Shown piece after piece: positions 20,123-58,380 of a DNA stretch of 59,081 bases. Within the stretch, counting starts at the first letter, position 1; every line of letters begins with the position of its first letter. This DNA is from Thermoanaerobaculia bacterium (lineage in GTDB: Bacteria; Acidobacteriota; Thermoanaerobaculia; Multivoradales; UBA5704): contig DATANP010000599.1 of the NCBI GenBank assembly GCA_036266195.1, forward strand, positions 1 through 59,081, read 5' to 3'. The translations under genes were made by a program, and so were the position numbers. The notes beneath the pieces are model-generated. The model was not told where the DNA came from. It was given only the letters and a program-made list of their open reading frames with translations, and did no database searches.

Positions 20123-22720
<2,598 letters not shown>

Positions 22721-22733
22721 GATGGGATCCTCC

Positions 22734-22778
22734 TGTTGCCGCAATTCGAAGCGGCTCAAATTCTGGACAGGCTACTTT
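22734..22778. repeat. Copy 1 of a ~45-bp conserved element (R element) containing a hairpin GCCGC-AATTCGAA-GCGGC
   Basis: Aligns by eye to 30516-30559 with 6 substitutions and 1 indel. See findings. Confidence 0.7.
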
Positions 22779-22813
22779 AGCCCTTCCCTCTCCTCTTCGC
22801 CCCGGTCGCCGGG

Positions 22814-26700: not shown

Positions 26701-27412
26701 ACAACCAGGACGATCCGGTTCCAGGCGTTACTCTGGCCGTCGATCACACAGACCTCACGGCGGTCTCCGACGCGCAGGGCCGCTTCCGTATCGCCGGGGT
26801 TCCTGTGGGAACGGTCAAGCTCAAGGTCGACGGCAAGACCACGAGCCGGCCCGGAACCTGGCCGTATCTGGAATTCCATTTCACCACCATCAGCGGCGTG
26901 GACAACAGTCTGGGGATGCCGATCCGTCTGCTTCCGATCGATGTCGCGGGCGGGAAGCTGGCTGGCGGTCCGGAAGAAGTCGTGATCCAGATGAAGGGAG
27001 TCCCCGGAGCGACACTGACAGTGGCGCCCAATTCAGTGACCTTCCCCAATGGATCCAAGGTCGGCACCGTCTCCTTCACCCAGGTCCATGGCGACAAGGT
27101 GCCGATGATCGCGCCGCTGGGCTCGAACTTCACGGTGGCATTCACGGTCCAGCCGCCGGGCACGCGCTTCGATCCTCCGGCGGTGGTGACGCTGCCAAAC
27201 ATCGGCCTGCCGCCGGGCTCCGAGGTGGATCTCTTCTCCTTCGATCACGACATCGGCGAGTTCCTCTCGGTCGGTACCGCGACGGTGACGCCGGACGGCC
27301 TGCTGTTGCGCTCGAACCCGGGCACCGGCATCAGCAAAGCCGGCTGGGGCGGTGGGGTTCCTCCACCGCCGCCGTTATCCGACGCTTGCCAACCGGGCGC
27401 TTGTACGACCTG
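23733..27412 (+). repeat. Copy 1 of a ~3.7-kb direct duplication (promoter, leader and N-terminal ~1160 codons)
   Basis: The protein alignment with 30558-34243 is roughly nine in ten identical by eye, and becomes almost identical in the last ~280 codons before the junction. Confidence 0.9.
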
Positions 27413-33500: not shown

Positions 33501-34243
33501 AGGAGACCGCGATCGTCGGCCTGGTGCTGGACAATCAGGATGATCCGGTTCCAGGTGTGACGCTGGCCGTCGATCACACGGACCTCACGGCGGTCTCCGA
33601 CGCGCAGGGCCGCTTCCGCATCGCCGGGGTTCCCGTGGGCACGGTCAAGCTCAAGGTCGACGGCAAGACCACAAGCCGGCCTGGGACCTGGCCTTATCTG
33701 GAGTTCCACTTCACCACCATCAGCGGCGTGGACAACAGTCTGGGAATGCCAATCCGACTGCTGCCGATCGACGTCGCAGGTGGGAAACTGGTTGGCGGTC
33801 CGGAAGAAGTGGTGATCCCGATGAAAGGCGTCCCCGGGGCGACGCTCACTGTGGCGCCCAACTCGGTTACGTTCCCGAATGGAGCCAAGGTCGGTACGGT
33901 CTCTTTCACGCAGGTCCATGGAGACAAGGTGCCGATGATCGCGCCCATGGGCTCGAACTTCACGGTGGCCTTTACAGTGCAGCCGCCGGGCACGCGCTTC
34001 GATCCACCGGCGGCCGTGACCCTGCCGAACATCGGCCTGCCGCCGGGCTCAGAGGTCGACCTCTTCTCCTTCGATCACGACATCGGCGAGTTCCTCTCGG
34101 TCGGCACCGCGACAGTGACACCGGACGGCCTGCTTCTGCGTTCGAATCCGGGCGTCGGCATCAGCAAGGCTGGGTGGGGCGGCGCGGTTCCGCCACCGCC
34201 GCCGCTGACGAATGCTTGTGAGCCTGGCTCCTGTACAAAATGT
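30558..34243 (+). repeat. Copy 2 of the ~3.7-kb direct duplication
   Basis: See copy 1. Confidence 0.9.
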
Positions 34244-36808: not shown

Positions 36809-39800
36809 ATGCCGAACAAGGGGATCTGGAACTCTTTGATGGACCGGAGGCAGGTGGGCCTTTTCTGTCTGGCCACTGCCTTCCTGCTCGCGTTCGCCGG
36901 CCCGGCCGCGGCCCAGGCCGGCCCGAGTTGCACGGCGAGCCTGCTCAACCGGACCGTGGTACCGGCCGAGGATGGCTCGTTTTTCTTCACCGGCATCCCC
37001 GCCGAGCTCGGCCTCTTTCGTGTCCGCCTGGCCTGCGAAGGCAGCGGCGTCTCCTATGGCCAGTCCGGTCTTTTCTCTTTCATCCCCAACAGCTTCGTGC
37101 TCATCGGCCCCATCCAGTTCGGCGACGTCAGCCCCATTCCCGTTGCGCTCGAGATCTCGGCCACCAAGACCACGCTTAGACAGCTCAACGAGACAGTCCA
37201 GCTCCGGGTGGACGGCATCATCGCCGACGGCCGCCTGATCGACATGACGTCGAGCGAAGGCGGGACGGTCTACATGTCGAGCAACGAGCAGCTCGCCACG
37301 GTCAGCCGCGACGGCCTCGTCACGGCCAGGGCGCGCGGCACGGTCTTCATCACCGTCCGCCGTGAAGGTGTGATCGGCGCCATCCAGATCGATCTCAACA
37401 TCCCTGCCGACGTAGACGGCGACGGCATGTCGGACGAGTTCGAGACCCTCAACGGCCTCGACCCCAGCGATCCCACCGACGCGCTCGAAGATCCCGACGG
37501 CGACGGACTGAGCAACCTCCAGGAGTTCCAACTCGGCACCAGCGTCGACTCCGACGACAGCGACGGCGACGGCATCTTCGACGGCGAGGAGGTCGCGATC
37601 GGAACTCTTCCCGCCAACCCGGACACCGACGGCGACGGCCTGATGGACGGCGACGAGATCGTGCGCCAGACCAACGCCCTTTCCGCCGACTCGGATGGCG
37701 ATCGCATCCTCGACGGCCTGGAGGTGGACCTCGGGACCAACCCGTTGGTTCCGAACGCCACCACCACGGTCGTCGGCCAGGTTGTCGACGACATCGGCTC
37801 GGCCGTGCCCGGCGCGGCCGCGGTCGCTTTCGGACGCCTGGTCGCCACCAGCGGCTTCGGCGGCGAGTTCCTGCTCGCCAACGTCCCGGCCGACCAGGGC
37901 AACCTGGTCATCTTCTCGCGCCTGATCCGGGACAGCCAGGTGCTCGACGGCCGCTCGCAACCGACGCCGCCGGCCGCCGGCGGTATCACCGACGTGGGCA
38001 TCATCCGGCTGGGCGAGATCAGCGGCCGGCTCACCGGCCGGGTGCTCGATCCGCGTGGCAACACGGTTGCCGGCGCCCGCGTGACCGTGCTGACCGGCGT
38101 CGATCGGCGTCAGGTCAACACCGACGTCACGGGTTTCTATGAAATGGATCGCCTGCCCCCCGGGCCGATCCAGGTGCAGGCGCTCGATCCGCGCACGTCG
38201 CTGCGCGGGCGCACCCTGGGCGAGCTGGCCGACAACAGCTCGGCCAACCTCGACGTGCGCCTCGGCGCCTCGGGCGACTTCGTCGGCACGGTCTTCCAGC
38301 GCGACGGCGAGACGCTGGTCGGCGCGGGCGTGGACGTCATGGCGCGTAGCCGCTCCTACTTCCAGCAGGCCGAGACCGATGGCAGCGGCAGTTACAAGCT
38401 GGAGTTCGTGCCGCTCGGCGCCTACACGCTCGACGGCAACGACGACCAGGGCAACCGCGCCCGCACGACCTCCTCGATCGAATTCACCTCCCAGGTTGTG
38501 CGCGCCGACCTCGGCTTCCTCGGCCGCGGCCGGGTCACCGGCAAGGTCGAGAACACGGCCGGCCAGGCGGTCGCCGGCGCCCAGGTGCGCACCAGTAGCC
38601 GCGGCATTTTCGATCAGGTTTTGACCGCGACCAGCGGGCCCGATGGGCGGTTCACCATCGACGGCGTGTTCGTCGGCGAGCTCACCGTGAGCGCCAACGA
38701 CCCCGCGACCGGCAACGCGGCTGCGACGTCCGCGGAAATCCGCTTCGACGGCGACAGCGAGGACGTGACGCTCGTCCTCCGCTCGACCGGAGCGGTCACC
38801 GGCACCGTCTTCGAGGTCGACGGCACGACGGTGGTGCCCGGAGCCACGGTCCGGGCTTCGGGCCTCGGCCGCACGACGACCACCAACAACGCCGGCGTCT
38901 ACCTCTTTGACCAGGCGCCTGAGGGAACGTATACCTCGCTGTCTGCGACCAAGCCGAACGGCGACTGCGGAGCGAACGAGGTCATCATCCCCGGTCCAGG
39001 CCCGGCGGCGGTGCGCAACATCGTGCTCCACGGTTTCGGCAGCCTTATCGTCACTGTGCGCTACGCCGACTCCGTGCCGGTCGTCGATACTACCGTATCC
39101 CTGTCGCCCAAGGACGGGACCTGCGGGCCGTCGCGCAGCGCGAAGACCGACGCCTTCGGCGTGGCGCGCTTCACCGACATCAACGCGGGCCGCTTCGATC
39201 TTGGCGTGGGTGAGCCGATCTGCGGTCTCGGCCGCTCCAGCGAAGTGTCGGTGAGCGCCGGCACGACCGGGCAGGCCAACGTCACCTTCCCGCCGTTCGG
39301 CGGAATCGGCGGACGGGTGTTCCGGCCGGATGGGGTGACGCCGATTCCCAACATGCGGGTAAAGCTGAGCAGCAAGTCCACGGCCACCGATTTGAGCGGC
39401 TCCTTCCACTTCGCCTGCGTGGTGGCGGGTACCTACGATCTCGAGGCGCTGGACAACAGCAGCACCGTGCTGGCGCGCGCCACGGGTGTGAGCCTCGAGC
39501 GCCAGGCGCAGGAGGTGCGGCGCGACCTGGTGATCGTCAAGCGCGGGACGGTCGAGGGGACGGTGCTCGATCCCAACGGCAACCCGGCTGTCGGCGTCGC
39601 GGTCTCGGTCGGCAGCCCCGGCCCCTCGCGTTCCGTGCGCACCGACGCCACGGGCTTCTACCGCGCCACCGGCGTCTTCGCCGGCCACGTACAGGTCACC
39701 GCCCGCGACGGCAACTTCGAGGGCCGCGGCGAAGGAGAGATCACCGAAGAGGGCCAGGTGATCACGATCGACGTCCAGATGGAAGGCGACCAGGTCCTGG

Positions 39801-42800
39801 CTCAGCTTTACGATGCCAACAACTATTTCTATCCGATCCAATATCCGAACGGCAGCATCCTGGACGGAACGCTGGACCTGTTCCGTGGCAATGGCGACAA
39901 GAACCGCGGCGGCTTCCGCCTCGAGTTGGGACAGGCCGGGACGTTCCACCCGTTCCAGGCCACCACGTCGGCCATCGGTCTTCAGGGTCGCGAGGTCCTG
40001 CTGAGCGGCGGCGATGCGAGCGGTCTCACGGTCAGCCGCCGGGTCTTCGTGCCGGTCGAGGGCTACTTCTCCCGCTACCTCGAAATCCTTTCCAATCCGA
40101 CGGCCAACCCGATCACGGTCGACGTCGGCGTCAGCTCTTTCTTCCGCTTCGTGCGCAACGTCCAGGATGGCGCCACGTTCACGGATCCGCCGGAGATCTT
40201 CGGCACCTCGAGTGGCGACAACCGCCTCGTGGCCGGCGGTTCCAGCCCCGACCGCTGGGCGATCATCGACGTGCAACTGCCGGACCGCTCGACCCTGCGG
40301 ACGCTCTATCCGACTGCGGCGCACGTGTTCGACGGCGACGGCGGCTCGCGCGCCGCCAACGCCGCGACGTTCGACGTCGATTTCGGCGCTCAATACGGCC
40401 GGCTGCGAACGGTCTGGTCGGGCGTCACCGTGCCGCCGGGCAAGACGGTGGTCCTGTTGCACTTCGGCGTCCAGGAGACCGGATTCCTGGCGGCGCGCGC
40501 GGCTGCGGCCCGACTGGTGCAACTTCCGCCGGAAGCGCTCGACGGGCTCACCGTCGAACAGATCGATGCGATCGCCAACTTCGCCGTGCCGGCCGGCGGC
40601 GGCAGCAACCTGGCACCTCTGCCGGCGCTCGACGGCACCGCCACCGGCACGGTCTTCGAGACCAACGGCACGACGCCGGTGCCCGGCGCGCCAGTACGGT
40701 TGCGCAGCAACAATCCAATTTTCCAGCGCCTCCTCCAGGTCAGGTCGGACAGCGGCGGCCGCTACCAGGTGCGGACGGTCTTCAACAATTCGGGCGGCTC
40801 GGTCGTGGTGCCGCGGGATGCGTTCACCGTCGATGCCGACCATCCGGTCAGCCGCGTCAAGTCACCCCCATACGTGGGCGAGTTCGCGGGCGGCTCCGCG
40901 ACCGCCACGCGCGACATCGTGTTCACCGACACAAGCACTGTCACGGGCACCGTGCGCCGTGCCAATGGCGAGGTCGTGAGCAACGGCTCGGTCCGTCTCA
41001 CCGGCTTCCAGGCACTGATCGCTCTCACCGCGAATCTGCCGACCGACGGCACGTTCCGCTTCGAGGGCCTGCCGCCCGGCTCCTACACCGTGGTCGTAAC
41101 CCAGCCGCACCCGCAGGGCTCCGGCCTTTCGGCCGCCGTCTCGGCCACGGTCACCGCCGGTGGGCAGACGGTGGTCGCAAACGTCACGTTCCCGGCCACG
41201 GGCCGCGTCGAAGGTGTGGTGCGCGCCGGCGAAGGCTTCCCGGTGGTCGCACACCTGGTCGAGCTCCTCGCTCCGTCCTTCCGGCGTGAGATGTATACGG
41301 ATACCGCCGGCCGCTATGTCTTCAACGACGCCCCGGTCGGTACCTACACGGTGCGCTCGTTGGAGCCGGGGACGAAGCTCCCGGCGACCATCCAGGTGAC
41401 CGTCACGGCTGACCAGACGGAGGTCCGCGACATCCAGTTCCGCGGCTTCGGCATCGTGGTGGTCCAGGCGTCGTACGCCGGCGGCGCGCCCGTCGACGGC
41501 GCTCCGGTCCAGATCCGCAGCCATCCGCTCGGCACCTTCTACAGCGGTGCCGGCAAGACCGACGCCGACGGCCGGCGCGAGATCGAGGACGTGCCGGTGG
41601 GCGCCTTCACGGTTCAGGCGCGCCATCCGGGCAACGTCGATCTGATCACCCAGGTATCAGGGGAGATCGCGACCGCCCGGCAGGTGGTCGTGGTGCCGAT
41701 GACGATCCTGGCGGACAATCCGCCGACCGTGGCGCTGACCGCGCCGATCGCCGGCGCCCAGGTGCTCGAAGGCACGGTCGTCACGCTGCAGGCTATAGCC
41801 GGCGACGACTACCGGGTGCAGAAGGTCGATTTCCTGGCCGGCGGCAAGGTGGTGGGTACGGCGACCACATCGCCATACTCGGTCCCCTTCATCGCCCTGG
41901 CGCTTTCCGGTGGGAACGAGATCGAGCTGCGCGCGGTGGCGACCGACAACGCGGGTCAGCAGACGTTGTCGCAGCCGGTCCGTCTGCGGGTCACCCACGA
42001 CGCCACACCGCCGATCGTCAACTTCGCCCGCCCAAGCGCCGGTGCCAGCTTCGTCGAGGGGACGACGCTCACCGTCGAGGTGATCGCCGTCGATGATGCC
42101 GGCATCGACCGGGTCGAGTTCTTCGTCCAGGGGACGCGGTTCCAGATCGTCAAGAGCGCGCCGTTCATTGCCAACCTGACGCTGCCGAGCGACGCGGCCC
42201 CCAGCGGGCCCGTGTCGGTGCCGATCTCGGCCACCGCCTACGACCGGGCCGGCAATCCGACCACGCGGACGATCTCCATCGTTGCGACGCCCGACGCGCC
42301 GCCGACCATCTCGATCAAGCAGGCGCCGCCGAGCGGCAGCGACGTGCTCGAGCGCACCACCCTGGTGCTCGAGGCAAACGCCAGCGATGACATCGGCGTC
42401 GAGGTGGACCTCCTGCTCGACGGCGAGGTCATCGGCACGCGCTCGAACGCGCCGTTCCGTTTCGAGTACAGGGTGCCGGACGCCGACGCGGTGAGCGAGC
42501 CGCTCCGCTTCGTCCTGCGGGCGGTCGACACGATCAGCCAGACGGCGGTCACGCCGTTGATCTCGCTGCGCGTCGTCGATCAGAAGGCGCCGGAGATCCA
42601 GCTCACCAGCCCCACAGTGGGGCAGGAGTTCTATGAGGGAGACAATGTCCGGATCACCGCGACGGTCACGGATGTCAACCCGATCACCGGCGTCGAGATC
42701 TTCTTCGACGGCGCCTCTCTGGGAGTGTTGACCGCGCCGCCGTATCAGATCGATTACCGGATGACGGCCGGGAGCGACCTCAGCCAGGTCGAGATCCGTG

Positions 42801-45800
42801 TGACCGCGACCAACAGCATCGGTCTGACCGGCGAGAAAAAGATCAACGTCGTGCGTCGGGCCGACGAAGAACCGCCCTTCGTCGCGCTCACCGCGCCCAA
42901 GCCCGGTACGGTCGTCACGCTCGGGGAGACGGACGTGACGATCCTCATCGACACGTCTGCCACCACCAGCCAGACCACTGGCCGCGATGCCGACGGCGAC
43001 GGCTCCACGGACACGATCCTCCGGTCCGAGGTGCTCGCCGCGCGCGAGCTGCTCAACCTGATCAGTCCGGTGACGAGCAAGGCGGCGGTCGTCTCCTACT
43101 CGACCTCCGCCTCCTTGTGGACGGGCCTTACGAACGATTTCACGACCGTTCAGAACGCGCTGACTACCATTCGCACCCTGACTCCATCCGGCACCCCGGA
43201 CTTCTCCGCCCCCCTGCGAACGGCGACCGATCAGCTCGGCGGGACCGCCGCCCGGCGCGAGGCGAGGTCGATCCAGTTCCTGTTCGGTCATGGAACAGGC
43301 GGTTTCCCGGCGGCCGAGGTCCAGCGCGCGATCGACGCCGGCGTGGTGATCCACACCTTCGCCGTCGGCTTCGGCGCCGACGCTGCTCTCTACCGCGCGA
43401 TCGCCGAGGCGACCGGTGGCGTCTTCACGGCGGTGAACGATCCGCGCGACCTGCGCGAAGTCCTGCCCGACTTCCTCGCCTTCGGCGTCGATTCCCTGGC
43501 GCTGGCCGCCGAGGCCAACGACAACCGTGCCATGGCGCAGGTGGCGTTCCGGGTGCGTTCGGCGGATGGCACGATCGATCAGACCCTGGTCGACTCCGAG
43601 GCGCCGTACGCTGCTTCCTTCAGCCTCACCTCGCTCGGCGCCGCGACCGAGCTGCTGGTCACGGCCACGGCCAAGGACGTGGCCGGCAACGAGCGCACCA
43701 CGCTGGCTGTCAATGCTACCGTGCTGCCCGGCAGCAATCCTCCGCAACTCGTGCGCATCCAGCCGCCGGCCGGCCGGTCAGGGGACAAGGTCCACGTGCT
43801 CGGTCGCTTCCTGCACCCGAACCAGAGCAACAATGCCATCACCTTCGGCGCGCTCCCTGCCACGTCGATCTCGGGCAACAAGTTCGACATCGAAGTGACC
43901 GTGCCCGCGATCACCGGCAACGTGCCGGTGAAGCTCGCCATCGGCACGCTGACCACCAACGAGATTCTGTTCCGGATCGATCGCGACGGCGACGGCCTGG
44001 CCGACGACGACGAGGCCGCGCGCGGCACCAACCCGACCGTGGCTGATACCGATGGCGACGGCGTCAAGGACGGCGACGAGGTCAACGTCTACGGCTCCAA
44101 CCCGCTCTCCACGGACAGCGATGGCGACGGCCTGTCGGACGGCTTCGAGGTGCGCTACTTCTTCGATCCGACCGTCGCGGGCGAGCAGTCGGCCGACTCC
44201 GACGGCGACGGCCTGACCAATCTCGAAGAGCAGACGGCGGGAACGGATCCGCGCAAGACCGACACCGACGGCGACGGTCTGACCGATGGCGCCGAGGTGC
44301 GGACCCACCACACCGACCCGACGCGCCAGGACACCGACGGCGGCGGCCGCACCGACAGCCAGGAGCTGGGGGAGGGGACCGATCCGCTCAACCCGGCGGA
44401 CGACCTGCCGACCGTCACCCTGCCCTACATCCTGATGGACGCCGGCGGGTACCGCTGGGATGTCCAGGGGAACGGCACCATCTCGGACGGAACGAACAAC
44501 GCCTTCGACGGTGCGTTCGACGCGTCCTTCTCGTTCTCCAGCGTGGTCTTTGCGGAGAACGACCGCCGCGAGCTCATCTTCGGCCCGCAGACCAGCAACG
44601 GCGTGAAGCGGACCCGCAAAGTCTTCGTGCCAAGCGACGACTCGTTCGTCCGGTACCTGGAGATCTTCGAGAACACGGCCACCAGCGAGCGCCAGTGGAC
44701 GCTGACCGTGTTCACCAACGTCGGCTCGGACAGCTTGACCGAGGTCTTGACGACCTCGAGCGGCGATAGCACCCTCGACCTGGCCGACGACTACATGGTG
44801 ACCGACAACAACGGCGATGGCTTCGGCAGTCCGGCGGTGGCCCAGGTCTTCGCCGGCCCCAATGCCCGGCTGCGGCCGAGCCAGTTTGGTTTCTGGTTCA
44901 CGAACAAGGACCTGAGCCGCTTCGAGTACACGCTCAGGATCCCGGCGGGCCAGCGCGCCATCGTCATGCACTTCGGCTCCCAGAGCACCATGCGGGCGGG
45001 AGCGCTGGCGAGCGCCGGCAATCTGCGCGCCCTCCGCGGCTCGGCCCTGGCGGGTCTCACCCCGGCCGAGCAGGCGGACATCGTCAACTTCTTCGCCTAT
45101 CCCGACGCCGACCTCGACGGCATCTCCGACGCCGAAGAGGCGACGCTCGGCACTGATCCGAACGACGCCGACAGCGACGACGACGGCCTGTCCGACGGCG
45201 ATGAAGTGAAAAACGGTTTCGATCCGAAAAATCCGGCCGACGCCGTGACTGATCCCGACGGCGATGGTCTCGACAACGTCGCAGAGCTGCAGCGCGGGAC
45301 CGATCCGCGGAACCCGGACACCGACGCCGACGGCCTGACCGATGGCGACGAGGTGGAGAGCCGTGGCACCGACCCGCTCAAGGCGGACACCGATGCCGAC
45401 GGCCTGACCGACGGCGCCGAGGTCAACGTCCATCACACCGATCCGCTCGACAGCGATACCGACAATGGCGGCAAGGCCGACGGCGCGGAGGTTACGGACA
45501 AGACCAACCCCCTCAACGCCGCCGACGATACGGTGCCGCTGCCGCGCACCTTGACCGACAATGCCGGCTTCCTCTGGGACATCCAGACCTACGGCGGCAT
45601 CGGTGATGGCAGCGCTGATGCCTTCGATGACGCGTTCGGGCTCAATGTCGACAACGGACCGAACCAGACCTTCTCCAAGGCGTTGACCGAAGCGGAGGTG
45701 CGTGAGCTCGTCCTCGGCCCCTGGTCGCAGAGCAGCGGGTTGAAGGTGCGCCGCAAGGTCTTCGTGCCGGCGAACGACGCGCTGGTGCGTTACCTGGAGA

Positions 45801-48800
45801 TCCTGGAAAATCCGGGAACGAGCGATATCGAGACGGTTGTCCAGATATTCACCAATCTGGGCACCGATTCGACCAACACCAAGGTCGTCCTCACCTCCTC
45901 GGGGGATCTCACCCTGACGAAGCAGGACCGCTGGATCATCACCGACGATTCCGACGGCACCGTCCGTCCGGCCGTGACGCTCCTCTTTGCCGGCGCCAAC
46001 GCCCGCGTCCGGCCGGACACCGCCACGCTCACCGGCGACAGCTTCATGGTCGCCTACCGCGTGAAGGTCCCCGCCGGCGGCCGGTCGATCCTGATGCACT
46101 TCGCCACGCAACGGACGCGGCAGAACGAGGCGCTGCTCAGCGCCCAGGCGGTTTCGGCGCTCGGCGGCCAGGCGCTCGCCGCACTCGATCCGGCCGAGCA
46201 GGCGGACATCGTCAACTTCTTCGCCTTCCCCGATGCCGATCAGGACGGTCTCTCCGACGCCGACGAGTCGAGCCGTGGCACGGACCCCAACGACGCCGAC
46301 AGCGACGATGACGGCCTGCTCGATGGTTTCGAGACCAAGAACGGTTTCGATCCCAGGACGGCGGGGGAGGCCGGCGCCGACCCCGACGGCGACGGTAGGA
46401 CCAACCTCGACGAACAGCAGGCGGGAACCGATCCGAACGATGCCGACAGCGATGACGACGGCGCGAGCGATGGCGTCGAAGCGACCGCAGGCAGCGATCC
46501 GCTCGACCGCGATACCGATCGCGACGGGTTGCTGGACGGCGCCGAGATCGGCATCTTTCACAGTGATCCGAATCGGACGGATAGCGACGCCGGCGGCCGG
46601 ACCGATGGGCAGGAGGTGCTCGAGGACGGCACCAATCCTGTCGACGCGAGCGATGATGCTGTCTCCAGATTCAACTTCAACTTGAGCGACAGCGGCGGTA
46701 CACAGTGGGACCTCGCTGGTGACGCCAGCAACTATGTTACAAGCGTACTATCTTCGGCTGCCAGATTGCTGATAACGAAGCTGCCCATCACTTTCGCCAG
46801 CAGTCTCTCGTATGGATCGTTCTTCTATCCTGATATCGGGGAGGGTCGCCGCGAGCTCCGGACGGCGCCGGAGCAGGTCCAGGGGATCACGATAACGCGC
46901 AAGTTCTTCGTTCCTGCGAATGACGCCTTCATCCGCTACCTGGAGATCGTCGAGAACCCCACGGCTTCGGATCTCCAGGTGAGGTTGAGCCTCTATTCGG
47001 GCCTCGACTCGTCCACGGTCATCCAGCTTCTCGCCACCTCCTCGGGCGATCTCACGGTGACCCTGCGCGACCGCTCGCTCGTGGTGGACGATCAGGACGG
47101 CAAGACCGACCCGCGCGTGCTCCATGTCTTCGCTGGCCCGAACGGCCGCGTGTTCCCCAGCCAGGTCAAGGTCAGCACCGAGCAGTTCTCGAACGAGGAC
47201 GTCCGCTATGACTTCGACCTGACGATCCCGCCGGGCGGCCGGCGCATCGTCATGCACTTCCTCTCCCTCCGGCCGGATCTGGCCTCCGCGGTCACCCAGG
47301 CCGGCCGGCTGGAGGCGCTGCTCGGCTCCGCGCTGGTCGGACTGTCGCCCTCCGAGCAGGCCGACATCGTCAACTTCTACGCCTATCTCGACACCGACCT
47401 CGACGGCCTCTCCGACGCCGAGGAGGCAGCGCGCGGCACGAACCCGAACAATCCCGACAGCGATGGCGACGGTGTCCGGGACGGCATCGAGGTGCGCCAC
47501 GGCAACGATCCGCTCAGCCCCGCGGATGGCTCGACCGACTCCGACGGCGATGGTCTCTCCGACGCGGGCGAGCAGACCGCCGGCACCAATCCGGACGACC
47601 CCGACACCGAGCACGACGGCCTCGCCGACGGCCCCGAGGTGCTGACCTACGGCAGCGATCCGTTCGTGGCCGACAGCGACCTCGACGGCATCACCGACGG
47701 CGAGGAGGTCGCGGTCCATGGCACGCACCCGGCCAAGGCCGACACCGACGGTGGCGGTCGCAATGACGGCGACGAGATCCTGCGCGATGAGACGAACCCG
47801 CTCGATCCGGCCGACGACTCGACAGCGAGGACCCTCCCCGTGACCCTGCTCGACGGCGGAGGCCTGAAGTGGGACGTGCAGACGTCGGGCATCATCCGCC
47901 TGGGCGACAGCGGCGCGTTCGGCTCCGGCGGGGGTGGCTATCAGCTCCGGGTGAGCGGAACCTCCTTCCCAGGCTCCGGGGAGGCGTTGACGACCCTGGC
48001 CGGGCGCCAGCTCGCGATCGGTCCGTGGAGACGGCAGGACGGCCTCGAAGTACGGCGGAGGGTCTTCGTACCGGCCGATGACAGGTTCATCCGCTACCTC
48101 GAGATCTTCGAGAACAACGGCGGAGACCCCCTTGCGATCACGGCCGAGATTCGCAGCGACCTGGGCTCCAGCACGGGCACCCGTCTCATCGTCGAGTCGA
48201 GCCGGGACGGACTCCTGGGCCTCGACGACAACTACCTCGTCACGGACGACGCCGGCGACGGTACCTTCTTCGGAAAACCGGCTATCACCCATGTCTGGGC
48301 CGGCCCTGGTGGGCGCATTCGCCCTGCCCTGGTCTCTCTGACGAGCAGCGGAAGGTTCACCTTCCGATACGACTTCACCGTGCCGCCGGGAGAGCGCGTC
48401 ATCCTGATGCACTTCGGCGCCCAGAACAAGGTCCGCGCCTCGGCCGTCTTCAAGGCGCCCGACCTGGAGCGGCTGCGCGGCGCCGCCATCCTCGGGCTCA
48501 CGGCGGACGAGCAGGCCGACATCGTCAACTTCTTCGCCTATCCGGACGCCGACAGCGACGGCCTTTCCGACGCCGACGAGCAGGCGCATGGCACCGATCC
48601 GAACAACGCCGACACCGACGGCGACGGCATCAAGGACGGCCGCGAGGTGGAGAACGGCCTCGATCCGCTCAACGCAGTCGACGGCGCAGCCGACCGCGAC
48701 GCCGACGGCCTGTCCAACGCCGCCGAGGAGGCGGCCGGCACGCTGATCTCCGATCCGGACACTGACGACGACGGTCTGACGGACGGCGCCGAAGTGAACG

Positions 48801-51800
48801 TCCACGGGACCAAGCCCAAGGTCGCCGACTCCGACTCCGACGGTCTGTCGGACGGCGCCGAGGTGTCGACGCATCACACCGATCCGCTCAAGGCCGACAC
48901 CGACGGCGGCGGCCAGGCGGACGGCGCCGAGGTGAGCGAGGGGAAGAACCCGCTCAGCGCGGCCGACGACGCGGTGTCGCTGCCGCGAAGCCTGACCGAC
49001 GGCTACGGAGCCTCATGGAGCATCCAGCAGGATGGCCGGGCCAACGGTGGTTTCGTGGCCAGCTCCGGCCTCGCGCTGCGCCTCTCCGGCACCCTGTTCC
49101 CCAACTTTACCAAGGCCAGCACGGAGGCCGGCCAGCGCGAGCTGGTGATCGGCCCCTGGGATCGCAACGGGCTCAAGGTGAGCCGCAAGGTGTTCGTGCC
49201 TACGGGCGATCGTTTCGTGCGATTCCTGGAGGTCCTGGAGAACCCGACCGGGCAGGCAATCGAGGCCGAGGTCAAGCTGGCGACGACGCTCGCCAGCGGC
49301 GCGTCGACCCAGGTTGCGAGCACGTCGAGCGGAGACGCGCTCGTCACCCTGGAGGATCGCTCGGTCATCACCGATTGGAATAATGGACCGAGCACCCGGG
49401 CCATTCACGTCTTCGCCGGGTCGACCGGCCGTCTGCGACCCTCGCAGGTGGGCCTCGATCTCTCCACGCTTTCGTTCACCTATCGCGTGACGGTGCCGCC
49501 CGGCGGCCGGGTGATCCTGATGCACTTCGCCGCGGGCGCCAATACCCTGCCGGCCGCGGCTGCGATCGTGGGACAGCTCGACAGCCTGGACGCCTCGGCG
49601 CTGGCCGAGCTGACGCCGGAGGAGCGCGCGGACATCCTCAACTTCCAGGCGCTGCCCGATGCCGACATGGACGGCCTCAGCGACGCCGAGGAGACGGGCC
49701 TTTACGGGACCGATCCGCTCTTCGACGACACCGACGGCGACGGCGTGCTCGACGGCAACGAGGTGCGGCACGGCCTCGACCCGCTCAATCCGGCCGACGG
49801 GACGGCCGACCTCGACGGCGACGGCCTCGACAACGCAGGCGAGCAGCTCGCCGGCACCGACCTGGCCGGCGCGGACACCGACGGCGACGGTCTCACGGAC
49901 GGCGACGAGGTGCTCATCCACGAGACCGATCCCTTCGTCGCCGACACGGATCGCGACGGCCTGAGCGACCTTGCGGAGGTTCAGACCCATCACACCGATC
50001 CGACCTCGCGCGACACCGACGGCGGCGGCCAGACCGACGGCGAGGAGGTCTCGCAGGGCAGGAACCCACTGTCGGCGAGCGACGACCGGCTGTCGCTGCC
50101 TCGGACTCTCAAAGACGGCGATGGCTTCTCCTGGGACGTGCAGCAGGATGGCAGCATCTGGGATGGTAGCAACAACGCCTTCGACGGCGGTTTGAAAGTA
50201 CCCTTCCAGAGCTTCTCCTCAGCGATTCCCGAGAACGGTGGCAGAGAGCTGCTGATCGGGCCGATGACGATCTTCAATAACCTCACGGTCAGCCGCAAGG
50301 TCTTCGTGCCGAGCAACGATGGATGGATCCGGTACCTGGAGATCTACGAAAACCTGACGTCCAGCCCGATTCCCTATCGGGTCAACATCAGTACCAACCT
50401 GGGGTCCGACCCCTGCTGCACCGAGATGGTTGCGACCTCCAACGGCGACAAGGTGCTTGGCTTCGGCGATCGCTGGGTGGTCACCGACGACTACTCCGAC
50501 GGGTCCAGCGAGCCGTCGATCGTGCATGCGTTCGCCGGTGCCGGAGCGCGCCTGCAGCCGTTCTCCGCCTCGCTGATCAACGACAACGTCACGATTACGT
50601 ACGACATCACCGTCCAGCCCTTCCGGCGCGTGATCCTGATGCACTTCGCCTCCCAGGCCAACCTGAAGGCGACGGCGCTCGCGACCGCAGGCGATCTCGA
50701 CGCCCTCCGCGGCTCGGCCCGGGCCGGCATCTCGCCGGAGGAGGCGCGCGATATCGTCAACTTCGCCGTGCCGTCGGACATCGATGACGACGGCCTCTCC
50801 GACCAGGAGGAAGCCGCGCTCGGCACCGATCCGCTGAGCCGCGACACCGACGGCGACGGCCTGCCCGACAAGTACGAGGTCGATCAAGGGCTCGATCCGC
50901 TCGACCCTTCCGACGGTCAGGTCGACACCGATGGCGACGGTCTGAACGATGGCGAGGAGTTCGCCCTCGGGACCGACCCGACCCGGGTGGACACCGACGG
51001 CGACGGCTACTCGGACGACTACGAGGCGGGCCACGGGCTCGATCCGCTCGACCCGACGGACGGCCATGCCGATGCCGACGGCGACGGCCTTGCCGACGGA
51101 CAGGAACAGCTCCTGGGTACCAACCCGCGCGATGCCGATAGCGACGACGACCACCTGCCGGACGGCTATGAGGTCGCCTATGGCCTCAATCCGCTGAACG
51201 CCGCCGATGCGACTCAGGATGCCGACGGCGACGGCCTGACCAACCTCGACGAGCGCGGGCGCGGTACCGATCCGACGATCGCGGACGTCGACCTCGACGG
51301 CTTGAACGACGGCCAGGAGGTCGCACTCGGCACCGACCCGAAGATCGCCGACAGCGATCAGGACGGCCTGAGCGACGGCGCCGAGGTCAACATCCACCAC
51401 ACACAGCCACTCAACCGCGACACCGACGGCGACGGCCAGACCGACGGCTACGAGGTCTCTCACGGGCTCGATCCGCTCGACCCGAGCGACGGTATCGTCG
51501 ACGACGACGGCGACGGTCTCAGCAACATTGAGGAAGGCACCCTGGGGACCGACCCGACCCGGCCGGACACCGACGGCGACGGTTTGAGCGACGGCGCCGA
51601 GGTGCGCACGTACACGACCAACCCGCTGCTCAAGGACACCGACAACGACGGTCTCACGGACGGCGAAGAGGTCAACGTCCATCACACCCTGCCGAAAGTG
51701 GCGGACACCGATCGCGGCGGGCAGACCGACGGCAACGAGTTGGAGGAGGGCACCAACCCGCTGTTCACGGACGACGACAGCTTCCCCATCGCGCTCGAAT

Positions 51801-54800
51801 ACGCGCTGACCGACGCCGGCGGCGTCCGCTGGAACGTGTTCAAGGAAGGTTACGTCTACGGCGGCATCACCACCACGTACGGCCAGCTCTTCCAACTCGA
51901 GCTCAACGGCACCGCGTTCCCCAGCTTTGCCACGGCCTCGCTCATGCGCGACGAGCGCACGCTCGTGATCGGCCCCTGGAAGACGCCGGGAGGCCTCGAG
52001 GTACGGCGCAAGCTCTGGATCCCGAGCGGCGACTCGTTCATCCGGTACCTCGAGATCCTGAAGAACCCCGGCACCACGGACGCCACCGCATCCCTGGTGC
52101 TGCGCGACAGGCTCGACAACCACCGACTGGTGATCTCGACGTCAGACGGCGACCGCTACGCCACGGCGGCGGACGACTGGGTGGTGCTCGACGACTCGCA
52201 GGACAACACAGGCGCTCCGCCGATCGCCCTGGTCTTCTCCGACTCCCTGGGCGACCTGCGTCCGGCGACGGTATCCAAGGTGACGTTCGGGGTGACCGTG
52301 AGGTATGAGATCACCGTGCCGGCCGGGTCGCGGGTCATCGTCCTCCACTTCGGCGCGCTTCGCACGGCTCGCTCCCAAGCTGCCACCATGGCCGCCGTGC
52401 TGCGCGACCTCGCGGGCTCGGCCCAGACGGGGCTCACGCCGGCCGAGCGGCGGCAGATCTTGAACTTCTTTGCCCAGCTCGACAGCGACGGCGACAAGGT
52501 GAGCGACGAGGAGGAGGCCGCGCTGGGCACCGATCCGCACGATGCCGACAGCGACGACGATAGCTTCGCCGATGGCTACGAGCTGGCCAACGGCCTCGAT
52601 CCGGGCGTGGCGAACGATCCGGCGGCCGATCGCGACGGCGACGGCCTGACGGAGAGCCAGGAGCTCGCCCGGGGCCTCGATCCGCGCAAGGCCGACACGG
52701 ATGGTGACGGGCTTTCCGACGGCGCCGAGGTCACAACCCACGGCACCGACCCGCTCAAGCCCGACGGCGACGGCGACGGCCTTCTGGATGGCGCCGAGGT
52801 GACCTACGGCACCGATCCGTTCAAGGTCGATACAGATAACGGCGGCCGGAGCGATGGCGAGGAGGTCCACTTCGACGGCACCGATCCGCTGGATGCCGCC
52901 GAGGAGGTGCTGCCGCTCGATCTCGGGTCCCCGAACGGTCTCACCTCGCCGCGGGTGACGGTGGACTCTGCCGGCAACATACATCTGGTCTGGATCCAGT
53001 ACCAAACGGTCACGCAGGGGAATTGCGACGGACTGGCCTATCGGATGCTCTCCCCGTCCGGCGCCACCCTGATCGACTCCACGCTGCTCAGCCCTGGGAC
53101 GTGTGTCGGTCCGAAAACGCCGGTGGTGGCCGCCGATGCGCAAGGTTTCATCCATATCGCCTGGATCGACTACCAGGGCATCCGCTACCTGCGGCTCGAC
53201 CCCACACGCGACGACCGCGACGGCTCTCCCGCCGAGGCTGCGCAGATCACCGTGGTACCGGCTGCGACGGTCTCGGGTGTGTCCGCGGCGGGCTACCAGG
53301 ACGGGCTCGCTGTCAGCGTCGGCGCAGCCGGCGAGGTCCACCTCGCCTGGCGCGATTCCCCGAATGAGGTCCACTACGCCCGCCTGGCGGTCGACGGCAC
53401 GGTGGCCGTGGCCGACCGGCTCGTCGGAAACATCCAGGGAATCCAGAGCGACCTTCCCCTGGGCCTGGCGGCGGACACGAACGGCGACGCGCACCTCGCC
53501 GCCACGGTATGGCCAAGCGGCGGCGCCAGATCGATCCGCTACTGGATGCTCGATCGCTCGACCGGGGTGACGCGCATTGCCGCCACCGACATAACCCCGG
53601 GCAGCGGCGCCGCGGTGGGCTATCCGACCCTGGGCGCGCTCGCGGGCGGCAGGATCGAGCTCATCTATGTGAAAGGCAATGATGACTTCGAGATCTACTC
53701 GAAGGGCGGCAGCTATCCTGACGTCTTCCGTCTGGTCCTCGATCCGGCGCAGGACGACCGCAACGGCGACGCGGCCGATCCGGCGCGCATCGTCGTCGCG
53801 GGCCCCCTTCCGTTCTCGCCCGGACCGCCAGCCGCCTCCATCGGGTCCACGGCCGCGTTCAACCGCGGACTCACGGCGGCGGTCTGGACCGAGCTCGATC
53901 CCGACGGTCTGCAGGTGCTGTTCGCTCGCGGGCTTGACGCGAGCGGTGCCGAGGTCGTGCCATACCAGCCTGTTACCAACAAGGCTGTCTCGCGGCTCAC
54001 CGTGCCTGCTGTCTTCTTCGGCACCGTGCGGCTGCCCTGGTTGCGGAGCACGCCATCATTTACCAACGCCTTGATGCTTTCGACCCTCAACCCGGACGGC
54101 GACGGCGACGGTCTGCCCAATCTCGACGAGAACGCCCGCGGCACCAACCGCCGCGATCCGGACACCGACGACGACGGCATGCCGGACGGCTATGAGGTCC
54201 TCAACGGCTTCGATCCGAAGAACGCCGCGGACGGCGCTCGCGACGAGGACGGCGACGGCCTGATCAACACCGACGAGGAAGAAGCGGGCAGCAACCCATT
54301 CGCCCCGGATACCGACGGCGACGGGCTCACCGACGGAGCCGAGGTCCACCAGCATGGGACCGATCCGACAAAGGCGGACACCGACGGCGACGGTCTGACC
54401 GACCGCGACGAGATCGCCGTCCATGGCACCGATCCGACAAAGGCCGACACCGACGGCGACCTGCTTCCCGACGGCTACGAGATCGCCAACGGCCTCGATC
54501 CGAAGAACGCGGCCGACGGCAACGTTGACAGCGACGGCGACGGCCTCACGCTCGGCGAGGAGCACCGGGTGGGAACCGATCCGACGGATCCCGACACTGA
54601 CGACGACCGCCTCACCGACGGCAACGAGGTGCACGCGCGCGGCACCGATCCGACCAGAGCGGATACCGACGGCGACGCGCTCTCCGACGGCGATGAGGTC
54701 GAGATCCACGGCACCGATCCGCTGAAGGCGGACACCGACGGCGGCGGCGAGAAGGACGGCTCCGAGATCGCCGCCGGCAGGAACCCGCACGACGCGGTGG

Positions 54801-57550
54801 ACGATGTCTTCCAAGTCGACCTGCCCTACGAGCTGACGGACGGAGACGGCTATCGCTGGGATGTCTCGACCACGGGCGAGATCAACTCGGGCACGGACTT
54901 CGCCTTCTATGGCGGCCTCGAGCTGGCGATGAACGGGGAATACTTCCCGGGCTTCAGCACCGGGACGCTGCGCAAGAACCACCGCGAGTTGGAAATCGGG
55001 CCCTGGTCCTCCGCCGGTCTGCTGGTGACGCGGAAGCTGTTCGTGCCCGACGACGACGGTCTGGTGCGTTACCTGGAGATCCTGGACAACCCGGGGGCTG
55101 CCAGCACTACAGTCATCGTGACCATTCCGTCCTACTTGAACTCGTACACCGATACGGTCGTGCTCCGGACATCCAGCGGCGACCTGGTGTTGAGCCCGGC
55201 CGACGACTGGCTGGCCACGGACGACTCCGCGGATGGCACCGGGAGGCCGGCCCTGGGCTTCGCCTTCTCCGGCGCCGGAGCGGCGGTGCAGCCGATCACC
55301 GCCTCGCTCGCCTCGGATGGGCAGCTTGCCATCCAGTTCCAGGTCACGGTGCCGGCCGGTGGACGCGCGATCCTGATGCACTTCGCCGTGCAGAACCACG
55401 ACCGCGCAACCGTCCTGGCCGCGGCGCAGGCGCTGGCTGCGCAAAGCGGATCGGCCCTGTCCGGGCTTACGGCCGCGGACCGCCCGAAGATCGTCAACTT
55501 CGTAGTGCCCACGGCGGCCTCCGCCTCGCTCGGCCAACTCCAGGCCGACGAAGTGGATCCGACCGGCGAGATCTCAGTCGATCTGCCCTATGAGCTGACC
55601 GACGGGGAGAATCACCGCTGGGACGTCATGCGGACGGGTGGAGTCAACAGCGGCACCGACGTCGCCTTCTACGGTGCCTTCGAGCTGGCTGTGGACGGGG
55701 TACCCTTCCCGCAACTCGAGACCGGCATGCTGCGCAAGGGACGGCGCGAGTTGGAGCTCGGTCCCTGGGCCGCTTCCGGTCTGCGCGTGACGCGAAGGGT
55801 ATACGTGCCGGAAGACGACAGTCTGGTGCGCTACCTCGAGGTTCTGGACAACCCGGGCACCGCCGACACGACGGTCACGGTGGCGGTCCAGTCCAATCTG
55901 AGCTCGATGGGCGATACGGTCGTGCTCAGCACCTCGAGCGGCGACCTGGTTCTGAACAAGGCGGATGACTGGCTGGCGACCGGCACCGCGGAAAGCTCCG
56001 GGAAATCGGCCCTGGCGTTCGCGTTCTCCGGGGGAACCGCGGGGTTGCAGCCGAGCCGGGCTTCGCTCACGTCGGACGGCGAGCTCACACTTGAATTCCG
56101 GGTCACGGTGCCGGCTGGCGGAAGAGCGATCCTGATGCACTTTGCGGCGCAGAAGCCGGACCGCGTCGCCGCCGTCGCCGCTGCCCAGGCGCTGGCCCTG
56201 CTGAGGGGGGCGACACTGGCTCAAATCCCGGCGGAGGACCTCCCGCGGATTGTGAACTTCGCGATCCCCGCGGGCGCTTCCGTGCTGGTCGACCGCCGGA
56301 TCGATCCGGACGGCGACACAGTGCCGGGCCATATCCAGATGCCGCGCCGTGGGGACGCGGTGATCGATTGGAACAACGTGACGCTCGAAGCCATCCGGAT
56401 CGACAGGACGGCCCCGCCGCGGGCGAGCCGGGCGCTTGCGTGCGTCCATACGGCGATCTTCGACGCGGTGAACGGCGCTGTGGGCGGCGCCTATGAGCCC
56501 TATCTCGTGGCCCCCGCCGAGCTCGGCTCACCCGTTTCTCCCGAGATCGCGGCCGCGGCTGCGGCTCACGAGACCCTGATCCACCTGTTCCCGGCGCAGA
56601 AAGCCCGGCTCAATGCCGCTCTGGCGGCCTCCCTGGCGGCCGCTCCGGACGGTCCCGAGAAGAGCTCCGCGATCACCTGGGGAAGGAAGGTGGCGAGGAC
56701 GATCATGGCGGCGCGCCAAAAGGACGGTGCGGACAAGACGGTGGACTACGAGGCTCAGGCCGGACTCAGCCTGTGGCAGCCGACGCCGCCCGGATTCTTC
56801 TCAGCCCTGCTGCCGCAATGGAGCTTCGTGAAGCCCTGGGCCATGATTCATCCAGCCCAGTTCCGCCAGGGTCCGCCGCCCTCCCTGCTGAGCGAGGAGT
56901 ACACCCGGTCGTTCCATGAGGTGGAGCGCCTCGGCGGGATTGACAGCCAGGACCGCACTCCCGAGCAGTCCGAGATCGCCCTGTTCTGGGCGGACGGTCC
57001 CGGTACCGCCACGCCGCCTGGCCACTGGCACGTCATTGCGCAGGCCATTTCCGAGGCCAGAGGCCTCAGCCTGCTCGAGAACGCAAGGCTGTTTGCCCTG
57101 CTCGCCATCACCAACGCCGACGCCGCCATCGTCTCCTGGGATCACAAGTACTACTATAGCCACTGGCGTCCCGTGACAGCCATCCGAATGGCCGAAGCCG
57201 ACGGCAATCCCGATACCGCCGCGGACGCCGACTGGACCCCGTATCTCCCGACGCCGCCGTTCCCGACCTACACCTCCGGTCACAGCACCTTCAGCGGCTC
57301 CAGCGCCCGGCTGCTGGAGCTGTTCTTCGGCACCGACAGGATCCCCTTCAGGACGAGCTCCGATGGCCTGCCGGGAGCACAGCGTTCGTTCACTCGCCTC
57401 TCCACCGCCGGCGAGGAGGCCGGACAGAGCCGGATCTATGGCGGCATCCATTGGCAGTACGACAACCAGGCCGGTCTGGCAAGCGGCCGCGCGCTCGCCG
57501 AGTATGTCTACCTCAACTTCCTAACCCCCAAGGGGGGGCTGTCGAAATGA
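36809..57550 (+). CDS. Giant secreted multidomain protein (6913 aa): Big_2, TSP3-like Ca-binding repeats, many CarboxypepD_reg-like domains, Ig-like repeats, VWA, IPT/TIG, ten copies of an unrecognised domain, propeller-like region, C-terminal PAP2/vanadium-haloperoxidase-like domain
   Basis: Uninterrupted 20.7-kb frame with GAGGAG 11 nt upstream of ATG. Signal peptide is [22 protein letters not shown]. Dozens of D.D.DG..D..E repeats. VWA segment ([10 protein letters not shown]...VVSYSTSA...IHTFAVGFG). PAP2 motifs at the C-terminus. Confidence 0.9.
43980..52500 (+). repeat. In-frame super-repeat region of the giant ORF: alternating TSP3-like repeat clusters and an unrecognised ~240-aa domain
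   Basis: The R-Y/F-L-E codon landmark recurs at 44651, 45788, 46934, 48092, 49220 and 50330 (spacings 1137, 1146, 1158, 1128, 1110 nt), then at 52043. Confidence 0.85.
56360..57547 (+). other. PAP2 / vanadium-dependent haloperoxidase-like catalytic domain at the C-terminus of the giant ORF
   Basis: All three PAP2 motifs are in order: K-x6-RP (KYYYSHWRP, 57146-57172), SGH (57275-57283) and SR-x5-H-x3-D ([12 protein letters not shown], 57428-57463). Confidence 0.75.
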
Positions 57551-57556
57551 GACGAG

Positions 57557-58276
57557 CTACTCGGGCCGGGACACACAACACCGGCAACGCGGTTCACCAG
57601 CTACATCTCGAACCGCACCCCCACTTCCACTGCGCGTCCGATGAGCGGCCCCCAAACGTCCGTCGTCCAGCGGTCGAGAGCCGTAGGTCGAGGCAGCAGG
57701 AGTGGGTCGTGGCAGCTCGTCTACGAGCACCCGCGTGTAGCGGCCGCGCAGTCCGCGCAGGCGCAGTCCAACTCCATCGTGGGTAGGCGCCGTTGTCTCC
57801 ATGTGCAGCCCGGGCAGCTCAGCAAACAGCGTCGTCAGGTTGCCCGGCGCCATGGTGAGGTTCTCTTCTACTTCCTCCTGCGGCAATGCCTCAACGTGCA
57901 GTGGCTGGTCTTCGAGCACGGCGCCTGTGCGGGTGGCGGCGACGACCGTGACCTCGCTCTCGAAGCTGAGGCGGCGTAACTGCACGTCTATGACCGCGGT
58001 CTGTCCGGCGATCACGCTCACCGACAATCGCGCCGGCTCGTATGCCTCGCGTTCCACGGTGATGACCTGGCTGCCCGCCGGAAGCTCCAGCTTGCCGATC
58101 CCTCGCTTGTCCGTGACCGTGGCGGTGGCCCCAGCGGCGGCAGCTGCGTTCGCGACCGGGGATGGCCCGCTGCGCACATGAAGCTCGACGGTACCTCCGC
58201 CGTTCTGCGCGCGAAGCGACGGCGCGAGCGCCAGCGCTAGGACACCGACGACCATTCGATACGCGACCTGGCTCAT
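57557..58276 (-). pseudogene. TonB-dependent receptor remnant (signal peptide, CarboxypepD_reg-like domain and part of the plug only; barrel missing)
   Basis: Start ATG 58276 with signal peptide MSQVAYRMVVGVLALALAPSLRAQ. Then ...EVTVVAATRTG...LPGLHMETTAP...GLRLRGLRGRYTRVLVD is plug-like, after which similarity is lost. Another frame ends ...GRAVEVGVRFEM* (stop at 57601-57603), which resembles a receptor C-terminal strand. Confidence 0.6.
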
Positions 58277-58380
58277 CGCACATCTCCCGCTACATCGTAC
58301 GAATTGGAACTCCCTCCTGTCCTGGCTGCGGGAGGTCCAGGCCTGGAGCGAGAATGGCAGCGACATGGTATTCTGAACCC

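Follow-up and report, generated by a model that had tools for sequence, protein, structure and literature searches.

The repeated unit described here is a previously uncurated protein family within a known fold, found in an undescribed repeated architecture. Its ten copies lie in one giant open reading frame (ORF; 36809..57550, + strand) that encodes a secreted multidomain protein of 6,913 amino acids (aa) in a Thermoanaerobaculia bacterium (Acidobacteriota; assembly GCA_036266195.1). The window, i.e. the whole stretch of DNA analyzed, comprises positions 1 to 59,081 of contig DATANP010000599.1, and all coordinates refer to it. An original prediction, made by a model from the DNA letters and ORF translations, had pointed to ten copies of an unrecognized domain, many of them separated by TSP3-like linkers, and had suggested a ligand-binding or enzymatic beta-sandwich.

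Ten homologous copies in one ORF

Exactly ten occurrences of the motif R-[YF]-L-E-[IV] were located in the giant protein, always in the same frame of this single ORF and exactly where the R-Y/F-L-E landmark had been placed (nt 40073, 44651, 45788, 46934, 48092, 49220, 50330, 52043, 55067, and 55829). The ten segments can be aligned end to end with pairwise identities of 27–62% and 17 invariant columns, and each scores 228–332 bits against a hidden Markov model (HMM) built from all ten, bearing out their homology over the full length of the domain. The domain spans ~235 aa, with copy 1 extending to 261 aa. Recurrent motifs are R-K-V-F-V-P, R-Y-L-E..N, T-S-S-G-D, M-H-F, and I-V-N-F. In copy-3 numbering, which is used throughout for conserved positions, D10, R75, P80, R87, E90, N94, S123, D126, D133, H190, F191, N229, and F230 are kept in 10/10 copies. 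Among 369 instances from 150 representative proteins of the wider family, which share only ~30% identity, R75, R87, N94, and N229 are 98–100% conserved, compared to 84% for H190 and 75% for E90.

All copies are encoded on the + strand. Copy 1 (aa 998–1258, 39800..40582, 228 bits) is a divergent subtype with a ~25-aa insertion and the ending LVQLPPEAL...NF, and is located among CarboxypepD_reg domains. It is followed by copy 2 (aa 2535–2767, 44411..45109, 322 bits, 79% to copy 2 of the orthologous locus L001) and copy 3 (aa 2908–3143, 45530..46237), which was used for the structural model. Alignment, HMM, and orthology delimit copies 4 (aa 3285–3529, 46661..47395), 5 (aa 3673–3914, 47825..48550), 6 (aa 4055–4285, 48971..49663), 7 (aa 4427–4658, 50087..50782), 8 (aa 4993–5226, 51785..52486), and 9 (aa 6002–6237, 54812..55519). 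Copy 10 (aa 6256–6490, 55574..56278; alignment and HMM) is 62% identical to copy 9. The originally proposed range of 44405–56270 thus holds copies 2–10, although copy 1 lies outside it and copy 10 ends slightly beyond it. Copies 9 and 10 are indeed adjacent, with 18 aa and no TSP3 repeat between them.

The domain occurs as two subtypes: the copy-1 type, with the ~25-aa insertion and a C-terminal LVQLPPEAL, is always found among CarboxypepD_reg domains, whereas the other type is flanked by TSP3 repeats. Carriers compared here were P0004, P0008, P0011, P0012, and L026, and the combination of this subtype with a CarboxypepD_reg context recurs in P0004, P0012, and L026.

A duplicated unit of six TSP3 repeats and one domain

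The regular spacing claimed for copies 2–7 is real: their landmarks are 379, 382, 386, 376, and 370 codons apart (1137 nt for the first interval and 1110 nt for the last), and the ~380-codon period is directly detectable in the DNA (repeat families D9 and D10). The super-repeat had been described as comprising six copies. This holds for the regular part of the array, but a unit of six TSP3 repeats plus the domain is also present at copies 8 and 9 and therefore occurs eight times (copies 2–9), with extra material inserted before copies 8 and 9. The linkers are genuine TSP3 repeats, as had been supposed, and measure 140–143 aa between copies 2–7. Pfam TSP3_bac (PF18884) matches three pieces of the protein with E-values of 7e-38, 7e-153, and 7e-109, and the predicted calcium-binding motif D.D.DG..D..E yields 67 regular-expression matches in the giant protein.

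A representative linker (aa 2768–2907, 45110..45529, + strand) consists of six ordered TSP3 repeats. Equivalent linkers, likewise delimited by TSP3_bac matches and the alignment of units, are found on the same strand at 46238-46660, 47396-47824, 48551-48970, and 49664-50086, and longer ones at 50783-51784 and 52487-54811. The last of the six repeats is always a D-T-D-x-G-G variant (DTDxGG..DG.E), followed by N-P-L-x-A-x-D-D. Such an ordered cassette with a constant last variant indicates that the whole ~380-aa unit was duplicated. This distinguishes the linkers from generic TSP3_bac repeats: the D.D.DG..D..E consensus is shared and the Pfam match is clear, but in this protein they are organized as a constant cassette of six, with position-specific variants, that was duplicated together with the neighboring domain. 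In an AlphaFold2 (AF2) model of the whole unit (mean predicted local distance difference test (pLDDT) 89.9, predicted template modeling score (pTM) 0.71), the linker blocks reach pLDDT values of 88–97 and contain one short helix per repeat. The model fits a structured, predicted calcium-binding wire rather than a floppy tether.

An uncurated family with thousands of members

The ten copies were scanned at E ≤ 10 against Pfam (24,736 models, to 2025) and NCBIfam release 20.0. As the original prediction had surmised, the domain is not recognized by curated families, with nothing above threshold in Pfam, NCBIfam, or sequence searches of the PDB. The best Pfam scores for the ten copies were 16.3 bits for Hepar_II_III_C (PF07940; cut-off 24) and 13.2 bits for YidC_periplas (PF14849; cut-off 24), both for copy 3 alone, and NCBIfam gave no match. 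PF07940 accumulates 24.8 bits when summed over a 2,500-aa piece of the protein, but no single stretch passes the threshold. A Pfam scan of 37 diverse family members revealed no recurrent family, with weak matches in 1/37. Against PDB sequences, a profile of the ten copies produced two chance-level matches and a profile of the 37 members none. Membership in the Hepar_II_III_C family is thus below the gathering threshold, and the (alpha/alpha) toroid lyase domain is absent from the giant ORF and from 25 scanned relatives and tails. Membership in the YidC P1 family also falls short of its cut-off, and the host is a secreted multidomain protein with no YidC core.

A word-indexed search, which returned 14 proteins, had made the domain appear rare. 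We rejected this view after an exhaustive HMMER search of 1.84 billion cluster representatives, which recovered 3,949 sequences at E ≤ 1e-3, 2,962 at E ≤ 1e-10, and 1,034 at E ≤ 1e-30. The best 150 representatives are mostly 1,000–6,700 aa long with 2–8 copies. In public databases, carriers are named "hypothetical protein" or "carboxypeptidase regulatory-like domain-containing protein", the second name deriving from a different domain. A genome scan identified 35 loci, all from metagenome-assembled genomes (MAGs). The closest are labeled Acidobacteriota/Thermoanaerobaculia (81% and 71% identity), and the others include Myxococcota, Bradymonadia, Binatia, Ignavibacteriae, Deinococcus, Deferribacteres, Gammaproteobacteria, Alphaproteobacteria, and Planctomycetota. 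Related giant proteins carry 8–11 copies with the same ~380-aa period. A literature search found no papers on supersandwich or mutarotase-like domains (see below) combined with bacterial TSP3 repeats, and brought up just one analogous architecture, from Omnitrophota (see the last section).

The predicted fold is a beta-supersandwich

An AF2 model of copy 3, built from a 24-sequence alignment, was predicted with high confidence (pLDDT 95.1, pTM 0.92) and comprises 14 beta strands followed by two helices, which form a C-terminal helical hairpin with the I-V-N-F motif at its end. The beta-sandwich proposed from the sequence is matched by this prediction; the fold itself, however, is not new, as the Foldseek search with this copy identified it as a galactose-mutarotase-like beta-supersandwich. 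Foldseek returned 64 PDB matches at E ≤ 1e-3, and the top 50 of these 64 consist almost entirely of proteins containing a supersandwich, drawn from more than ten families, with a probability of 1.0. Among these top 50 are YidC P1 (E 1e-6, TMq 0.50–0.55), cellobiose and cellodextrin phosphorylases of family GH94 (TMq up to 0.60), cyclic-glucan synthase, GH65 enzymes, one GH38 enzyme, aldose-1-epimerase-like proteins, and several lyases (heparinase III, a Bacteroides polysaccharide lyase, and hyaluronate lyase). A search of the viral structure database BFVD gave four matches at E ≤ 1e-3, including GH65- and GH95-annotated giant-virus proteins, with the other two unnamed. The two sub-threshold Pfam matches, Hepar_II_III_C and YidC_periplas, name domains that are also among the structural matches.

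As the AF2 model is confident and the Foldseek matches are almost all supersandwich proteins, the predicted structure strongly supports placing the domain in the galactose-mutarotase-like beta-supersandwich fold, which we take to correspond to SCOP b.30.5 and the Pfam clan Gal_mutarotase. In aldose 1-epimerase, the sugar-binding and catalytic cleft contains His/His/Asp/Glu residues. With the established families of this fold (YidC P1, the N-terminal domains of GH94 and GH65 enzymes, the C-terminal domains of heparinase II/III and PL8 lyases, and aldose 1-epimerase), the domain shares a predicted two-sheet supersandwich of ~230–300 aa. It differs from them in lacking significant sequence similarity, in its own motif set and C-terminal helical hairpin, and in being free-standing and repeated up to 11 times per protein, whereas theirs is accessory to a catalytic barrel or part of a membrane insertase. 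Identities in the structural alignments are 10–15% and profile searches provide no link, so that strict homology to these families is not demonstrated.

Long-term maintenance of the array

For copies 1–9, the best match is the same-numbered copy in the orthologous proteins of loci L001 and L005 (56–85% identity), and most copies also match their same-numbered counterparts in L002 and L003. The closest paralogs within the window reach just 32–63% identity. At the DNA level, the ten copies are 60–85% identical to one another, with none near-identical. Region-wise ratios of nonsynonymous to synonymous substitution (dN/dS; Nei-Gojobori, against L001) are 0.23–0.49 for the nine comparable copies, a sign of purifying selection, and 0.12–0.34 for the linkers, which are thus at least as constrained as the domains. 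Copy 10 is outside the orthology and dN/dS comparisons, since the L001 and L005 loci end before it. Given this positional orthology and the low dN/dS, the comparisons indicate that the array is old and that every copy is individually maintained. Recent duplication was rejected on the grounds that positional orthologs are closer than paralogs and that near-identical DNA copies are missing. Two further processes raised as possibilities at the outset were not observed: one-to-one positional orthologs being closer than paralogs speaks against concerted evolution among copies, and the dN/dS range of the copies reveals no region-wide positive selection.

These comparisons also bear on the reality of the ORF itself. 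The window has a G+C content of ~67% and contains many long shadow ORFs in other frames and on the opposite strand, so a repeat pattern arising by chance, or from a spurious long ORF in GC-rich DNA, had to be considered. However, the G+C content at third codon positions (GC3) in the frame of the giant ORF is 0.87, as in real genes of the window and unlike in shadow ORFs. An ortholog in L001, with 53–89% identity depending on the region, is under purifying selection, and orthologous giant genes elsewhere have dN/dS values below 0.5. Together with the HMM scores of the copies, the Pfam domains found along the entire ORF, the 3,949 database relatives, and the confidently predicted fold, this rules out the artefact, whose probability we consider negligible. 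The first 200 aa of the protein are conserved in 61 relatives and start with a putative Sec-type signal peptide beginning MPNKG (36809..36913, + strand), which was judged by eye from the translation. From the N- to the C-terminus, this signal-peptide-like start is followed by Big_2, TSP3_bac repeats, about ten CarboxypepD_reg domains surrounding copy 1, four Big_7 domains, VWA, TIG, the TSP3/domain array, which includes a ~390-aa region between copies 8 and 9, and a C-terminal PAP2/VCPO-like domain.

A haloperoxidase-like C-terminus and a candidate beta-propeller

The C-terminal domain (aa 6491–6913, 56279..57547, + strand) was assigned to the vanadium-dependent haloperoxidase (VHPO)/PAP2-like type by the Pfam models PAP2, VCPO_N, and VCPO_2nd. 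It matches the VHPO in PDB entry 4cit over its full length (E 1.7e-34, residues 38–411 of 423), scores 38 bits against Pfam PAP2, and has the motifs KX6RP, SGH (PSGH), and SRX5HX3D readable in its translation. By sequence comparison, the domain is homologous to solved VHPOs and its motif set is intact. It shares its PAP2-type motifs with the Zobellia iodoperoxidase (4cit) and the fungal chloroperoxidase (1idq), but is fused here to the end of a 6,500-aa adhesin-like stalk. A haloperoxidase domain was found neither in the 150 best relatives nor in the 35 loci, of which the closest end before their C-termini, and we therefore rejected it as a conserved partner of the repeated domain. As it was not found in these relatives and loci, it may represent a lineage-specific 'payload'. 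The C-terminal tails of the relatives are variable.

The ~390-aa region between copies 8 and 9 (aa 5371–5760, 52919..54088, + strand) has SBBP as its only direct Pfam match (E 0.018) and contains D..G..H[LIV].W motifs that recur along it. No other part of the protein evolves as fast (53% identity and dN/dS 0.49 compared to L001). Homologs are found in 18 relatives, where they are placed after the repeat array, and the homolog in P0021 reaches the threshold for Pfam BNR_4 (27.4 bits, E 2.6e-6). Based on the latter match, the region is probably a BNR_4-like, i.e. sialidase-like, beta-propeller.

Proposed function of the repeated domain

Besides the putative signal peptide, the giant protein contains a range of domains of the extracellular adhesion type (Big_2, CarboxypepD_reg, Big_7, VWA, TIG, and TSP3). 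In other carriers, the repeated domain is fused to TSP3, C-type lectin, Glucodextran_B, disintegrin with Dicty_CTDC, RTX with VWA, an FGE-sulfatase-like domain, various beta-propellers, or Ig domains. No catalytic domain of carbohydrate-active enzymes (CAZymes), be it a glycoside hydrolase, lyase, or transferase, was found in the giant protein or in the sampled relatives, and the carriers have no CAZyme core in common. In this the domain departs from CAZy-type carbohydrate-binding modules, which belong to a carbohydrate-active enzyme.

The carriers also include smaller proteins. A single-copy carrier from a Deinococcus MAG (L016:1656-4028) combines the domain with an FGE-sulfatase-like domain, and an Amaricoccus MAG (L029:9962-12439) combines it with RTX repeats, VWA, and a serralysin C-terminal domain. 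Two adjacent planctomycete proteins (L028:9830-14105) have an N-terminal copy and unassigned C-terminal halves. P0150 consists of a C-type lectin and the domain, and P0002, a protein of 310 aa with one copy, has a hydrophobic, basic C-terminal tail resembling a sorting signal.

Considering the fold class, the extracellular context, the multiplicity of the domain, and its partners without CAZyme core, we hold with moderate confidence that the domain is a non-catalytic ligand-binding module, probably for glycans, and that spacers stiffened by calcium hold it in an array within an adhesin-like extracellular protein. The analysis shows that the copies are homologous, old, and constrained, and it establishes their predicted fold, the extracellular multidomain context, and the size of the family, whereas binding of a ligand by the modules, the carbohydrate nature of this ligand, and a role of multiplicity in avidity are inferred. 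The ten copies would be displayed outside the cell, copies 2–9 each following a structured stretch of six predicted calcium-binding TSP3 repeats, and each copy would act as a non-catalytic ligand binder, most probably of a glycan. Together, the copies and spacers would make up a long multivalent stalk, stiffened by calcium, that could tether the protein to a surface made of polymer, for example extracellular polysaccharide, a cell wall, or a plant or algal matrix. Anchoring of this kind would position the BNR_4-like propeller and the C-terminal vanadium-haloperoxidase-like enzyme at that surface.

Several observations weigh against this interpretation. The TM-scores are moderate (0.5–0.6), making the domain a divergent member of its fold class, and possession of this fold is no guarantee that sugar is bound. 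YidC P1, whose beta-supersandwich resembles galactose mutarotase, has a cleft at the position of the sugar pocket but lacks the sugar-binding motif, and it has been suggested that this cleft binds proteins or periplasmic molecules (PMC4252904). At the sequence level, neither the sub-threshold Pfam matches, seen in one of the 37 members, nor the negative PDB profile search links the domain to carbohydrate-binding families. Finally, the presence of four near-invariant polar residues at ~30% identity would be compatible with a catalytic or metal site as well. These residues are one argument for a catalytic domain, in which R75, R87, N94, and N229, together with H190, D133, and E90, would form the active site of an epimerase, lyase, or hydrolase, and the whole array a processive multi-site enzyme. 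The fold class does include a true enzyme, aldose 1-epimerase, as well as domains contributing to phosphorylase and lyase active sites, and copy 3 weakly matches the heparinase II/III C-terminal domain. We nevertheless regard catalysis as quite unlikely: 8–11 catalytic copies per protein would be unusual, the partners are adhesion and recognition modules rather than CAZyme cores, and the (alpha/alpha) barrel to which the supersandwich of lyases and phosphorylases is accessory is absent here. Furthermore, H190 and E90 are less conserved across the family than the four polar residues, and no curated enzyme family was matched.

Alternatively, the domain could be a structural or protein-binding spacer without a small-ligand site, its invariant residues stabilizing the fold through salt bridges, Asn caps, and docking of the IVNF strand. 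The best structural match, YidC P1, is consistent with such a role, being non-enzymatic and without a sugar motif, and N229 and F230 lie in the C-terminal tail, which in the model is probably packed on the sandwich. The protein is, moreover, already rich in purely structural Ig-like and CarboxypepD_reg modules. Yet position-specific orthology and a polar invariant set conserved across phyla are rare in simple spacers, and the rigid TSP3 blocks already provide length. A spacer role would also make little sense for a single N-terminal copy in small lectin, RTX, or FGE-like fusions, and we consider this alternative unlikely.

Other genes in the window

The giant gene is directly preceded on the same strand by two paralogous Ig-rich proteins of ~1,700 aa (23901-28940 and 30725-35950, +) with a near-identical Pfam layout of Big_7/Big_13, two Glucodextran_B, Big_1, CarboxypepD_reg, and PKD domains. 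Together with the giant gene, this pair may constitute a surface-protein cluster. Downstream, a 269-aa ORF (57557-58366, −) contains only CarboxypepD_reg and TonB Plug domains. It resembles the N-terminal part of a SusC/RagA-type TonB-dependent receptor without the barrel, possibly as a result of truncation or a frameshift.

The 5' part of the window harbors genes typical of an extracellular contractile injection system (eCIS; 317-1333, 10833-13949, and 13959-17210, all +), encoding a Pvc16_N protein (E 1e-24), a 1,083-aa protein with eCIS_core (PF13699, E 2e-27), and a DUF6519-like protein. The eCIS_core domain is a marker of eCIS-associated effectors. A link between these genes and the giant gene was considered but dropped, as they are ~20 kb apart with opposite-strand genes in between, and the two appear unrelated. 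The genes in this interval include those encoding a Schlafen AlbA_2 plus HATPase_c_4 protein (17754-19034, −), located between the eCIS genes and the amylase gene, and an isoamylase/alpha-amylase-type enzyme (20123-22759, −) with CBM48 and a C-terminal CBM20 starch-binding domain. An ORF on the + strand at 20081-22780 is a shadow of the amylase gene (GC3 0.55 vs. 0.93).

Implications for giant surface proteins

A comparable design principle, with beta domains alternating with calcium-binding elements, has been reported for the 'Dockerin-type' giant proteins of Omnitrophota, in which domains resembling carbohydrate-binding modules (CBMs; CBM35-like) alternate with dockerin/TSP3 calcium-binding elements (West-Roberts et al. 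2023, bioRxiv 10.1101/2023.11.21.568195). The likeness is one of architecture only, as the repeat in those proteins is CBM35-like and not a supersandwich, and the proteins exceed 30,000 aa, are membrane-anchored, and belong to another phylum.

The findings fill a gap in domain annotation without overturning current understanding, and specialists in giant bacterial surface proteins are unlikely to be surprised by them. Still, a substantial portion of some of the largest proteins known from uncultured Acidobacteriota (Thermoanaerobaculia), Myxococcota, Planctomycetota, and other groups consists of this domain, and the family has thousands of members but no curated entry in the Pfam and NCBIfam releases searched, and no structure. 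Defining it would provide annotation for hundreds of kilobases of "hypothetical" sequence. Tentatively, and with considerable reservation, we suggest that the domain founds a new family of lectins or CBMs built on the supersandwich fold or, with lower probability, a new class of enzymes with this fold. The invariant Arg-Arg-Asn-Asn set would define the binding site, which might recognize anionic polysaccharides, and arrays of up to 11 copies, made rigid by calcium, would allow diverse uncultured bacteria to grip a polymeric surface and to bring variable terminal modules to it. The haloperoxidase of the protein described here could in that case produce hypohalous acid at the bound surface, and the presence of a vanadium haloperoxidase at the end of such a stalk may point to oxidative chemistry targeted to a surface. 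If the domain is a binding module with a defined ligand, it would offer a new lectin or CBM scaffold and would shed light on the attachment of these environmental bacteria to polymers or other cells.

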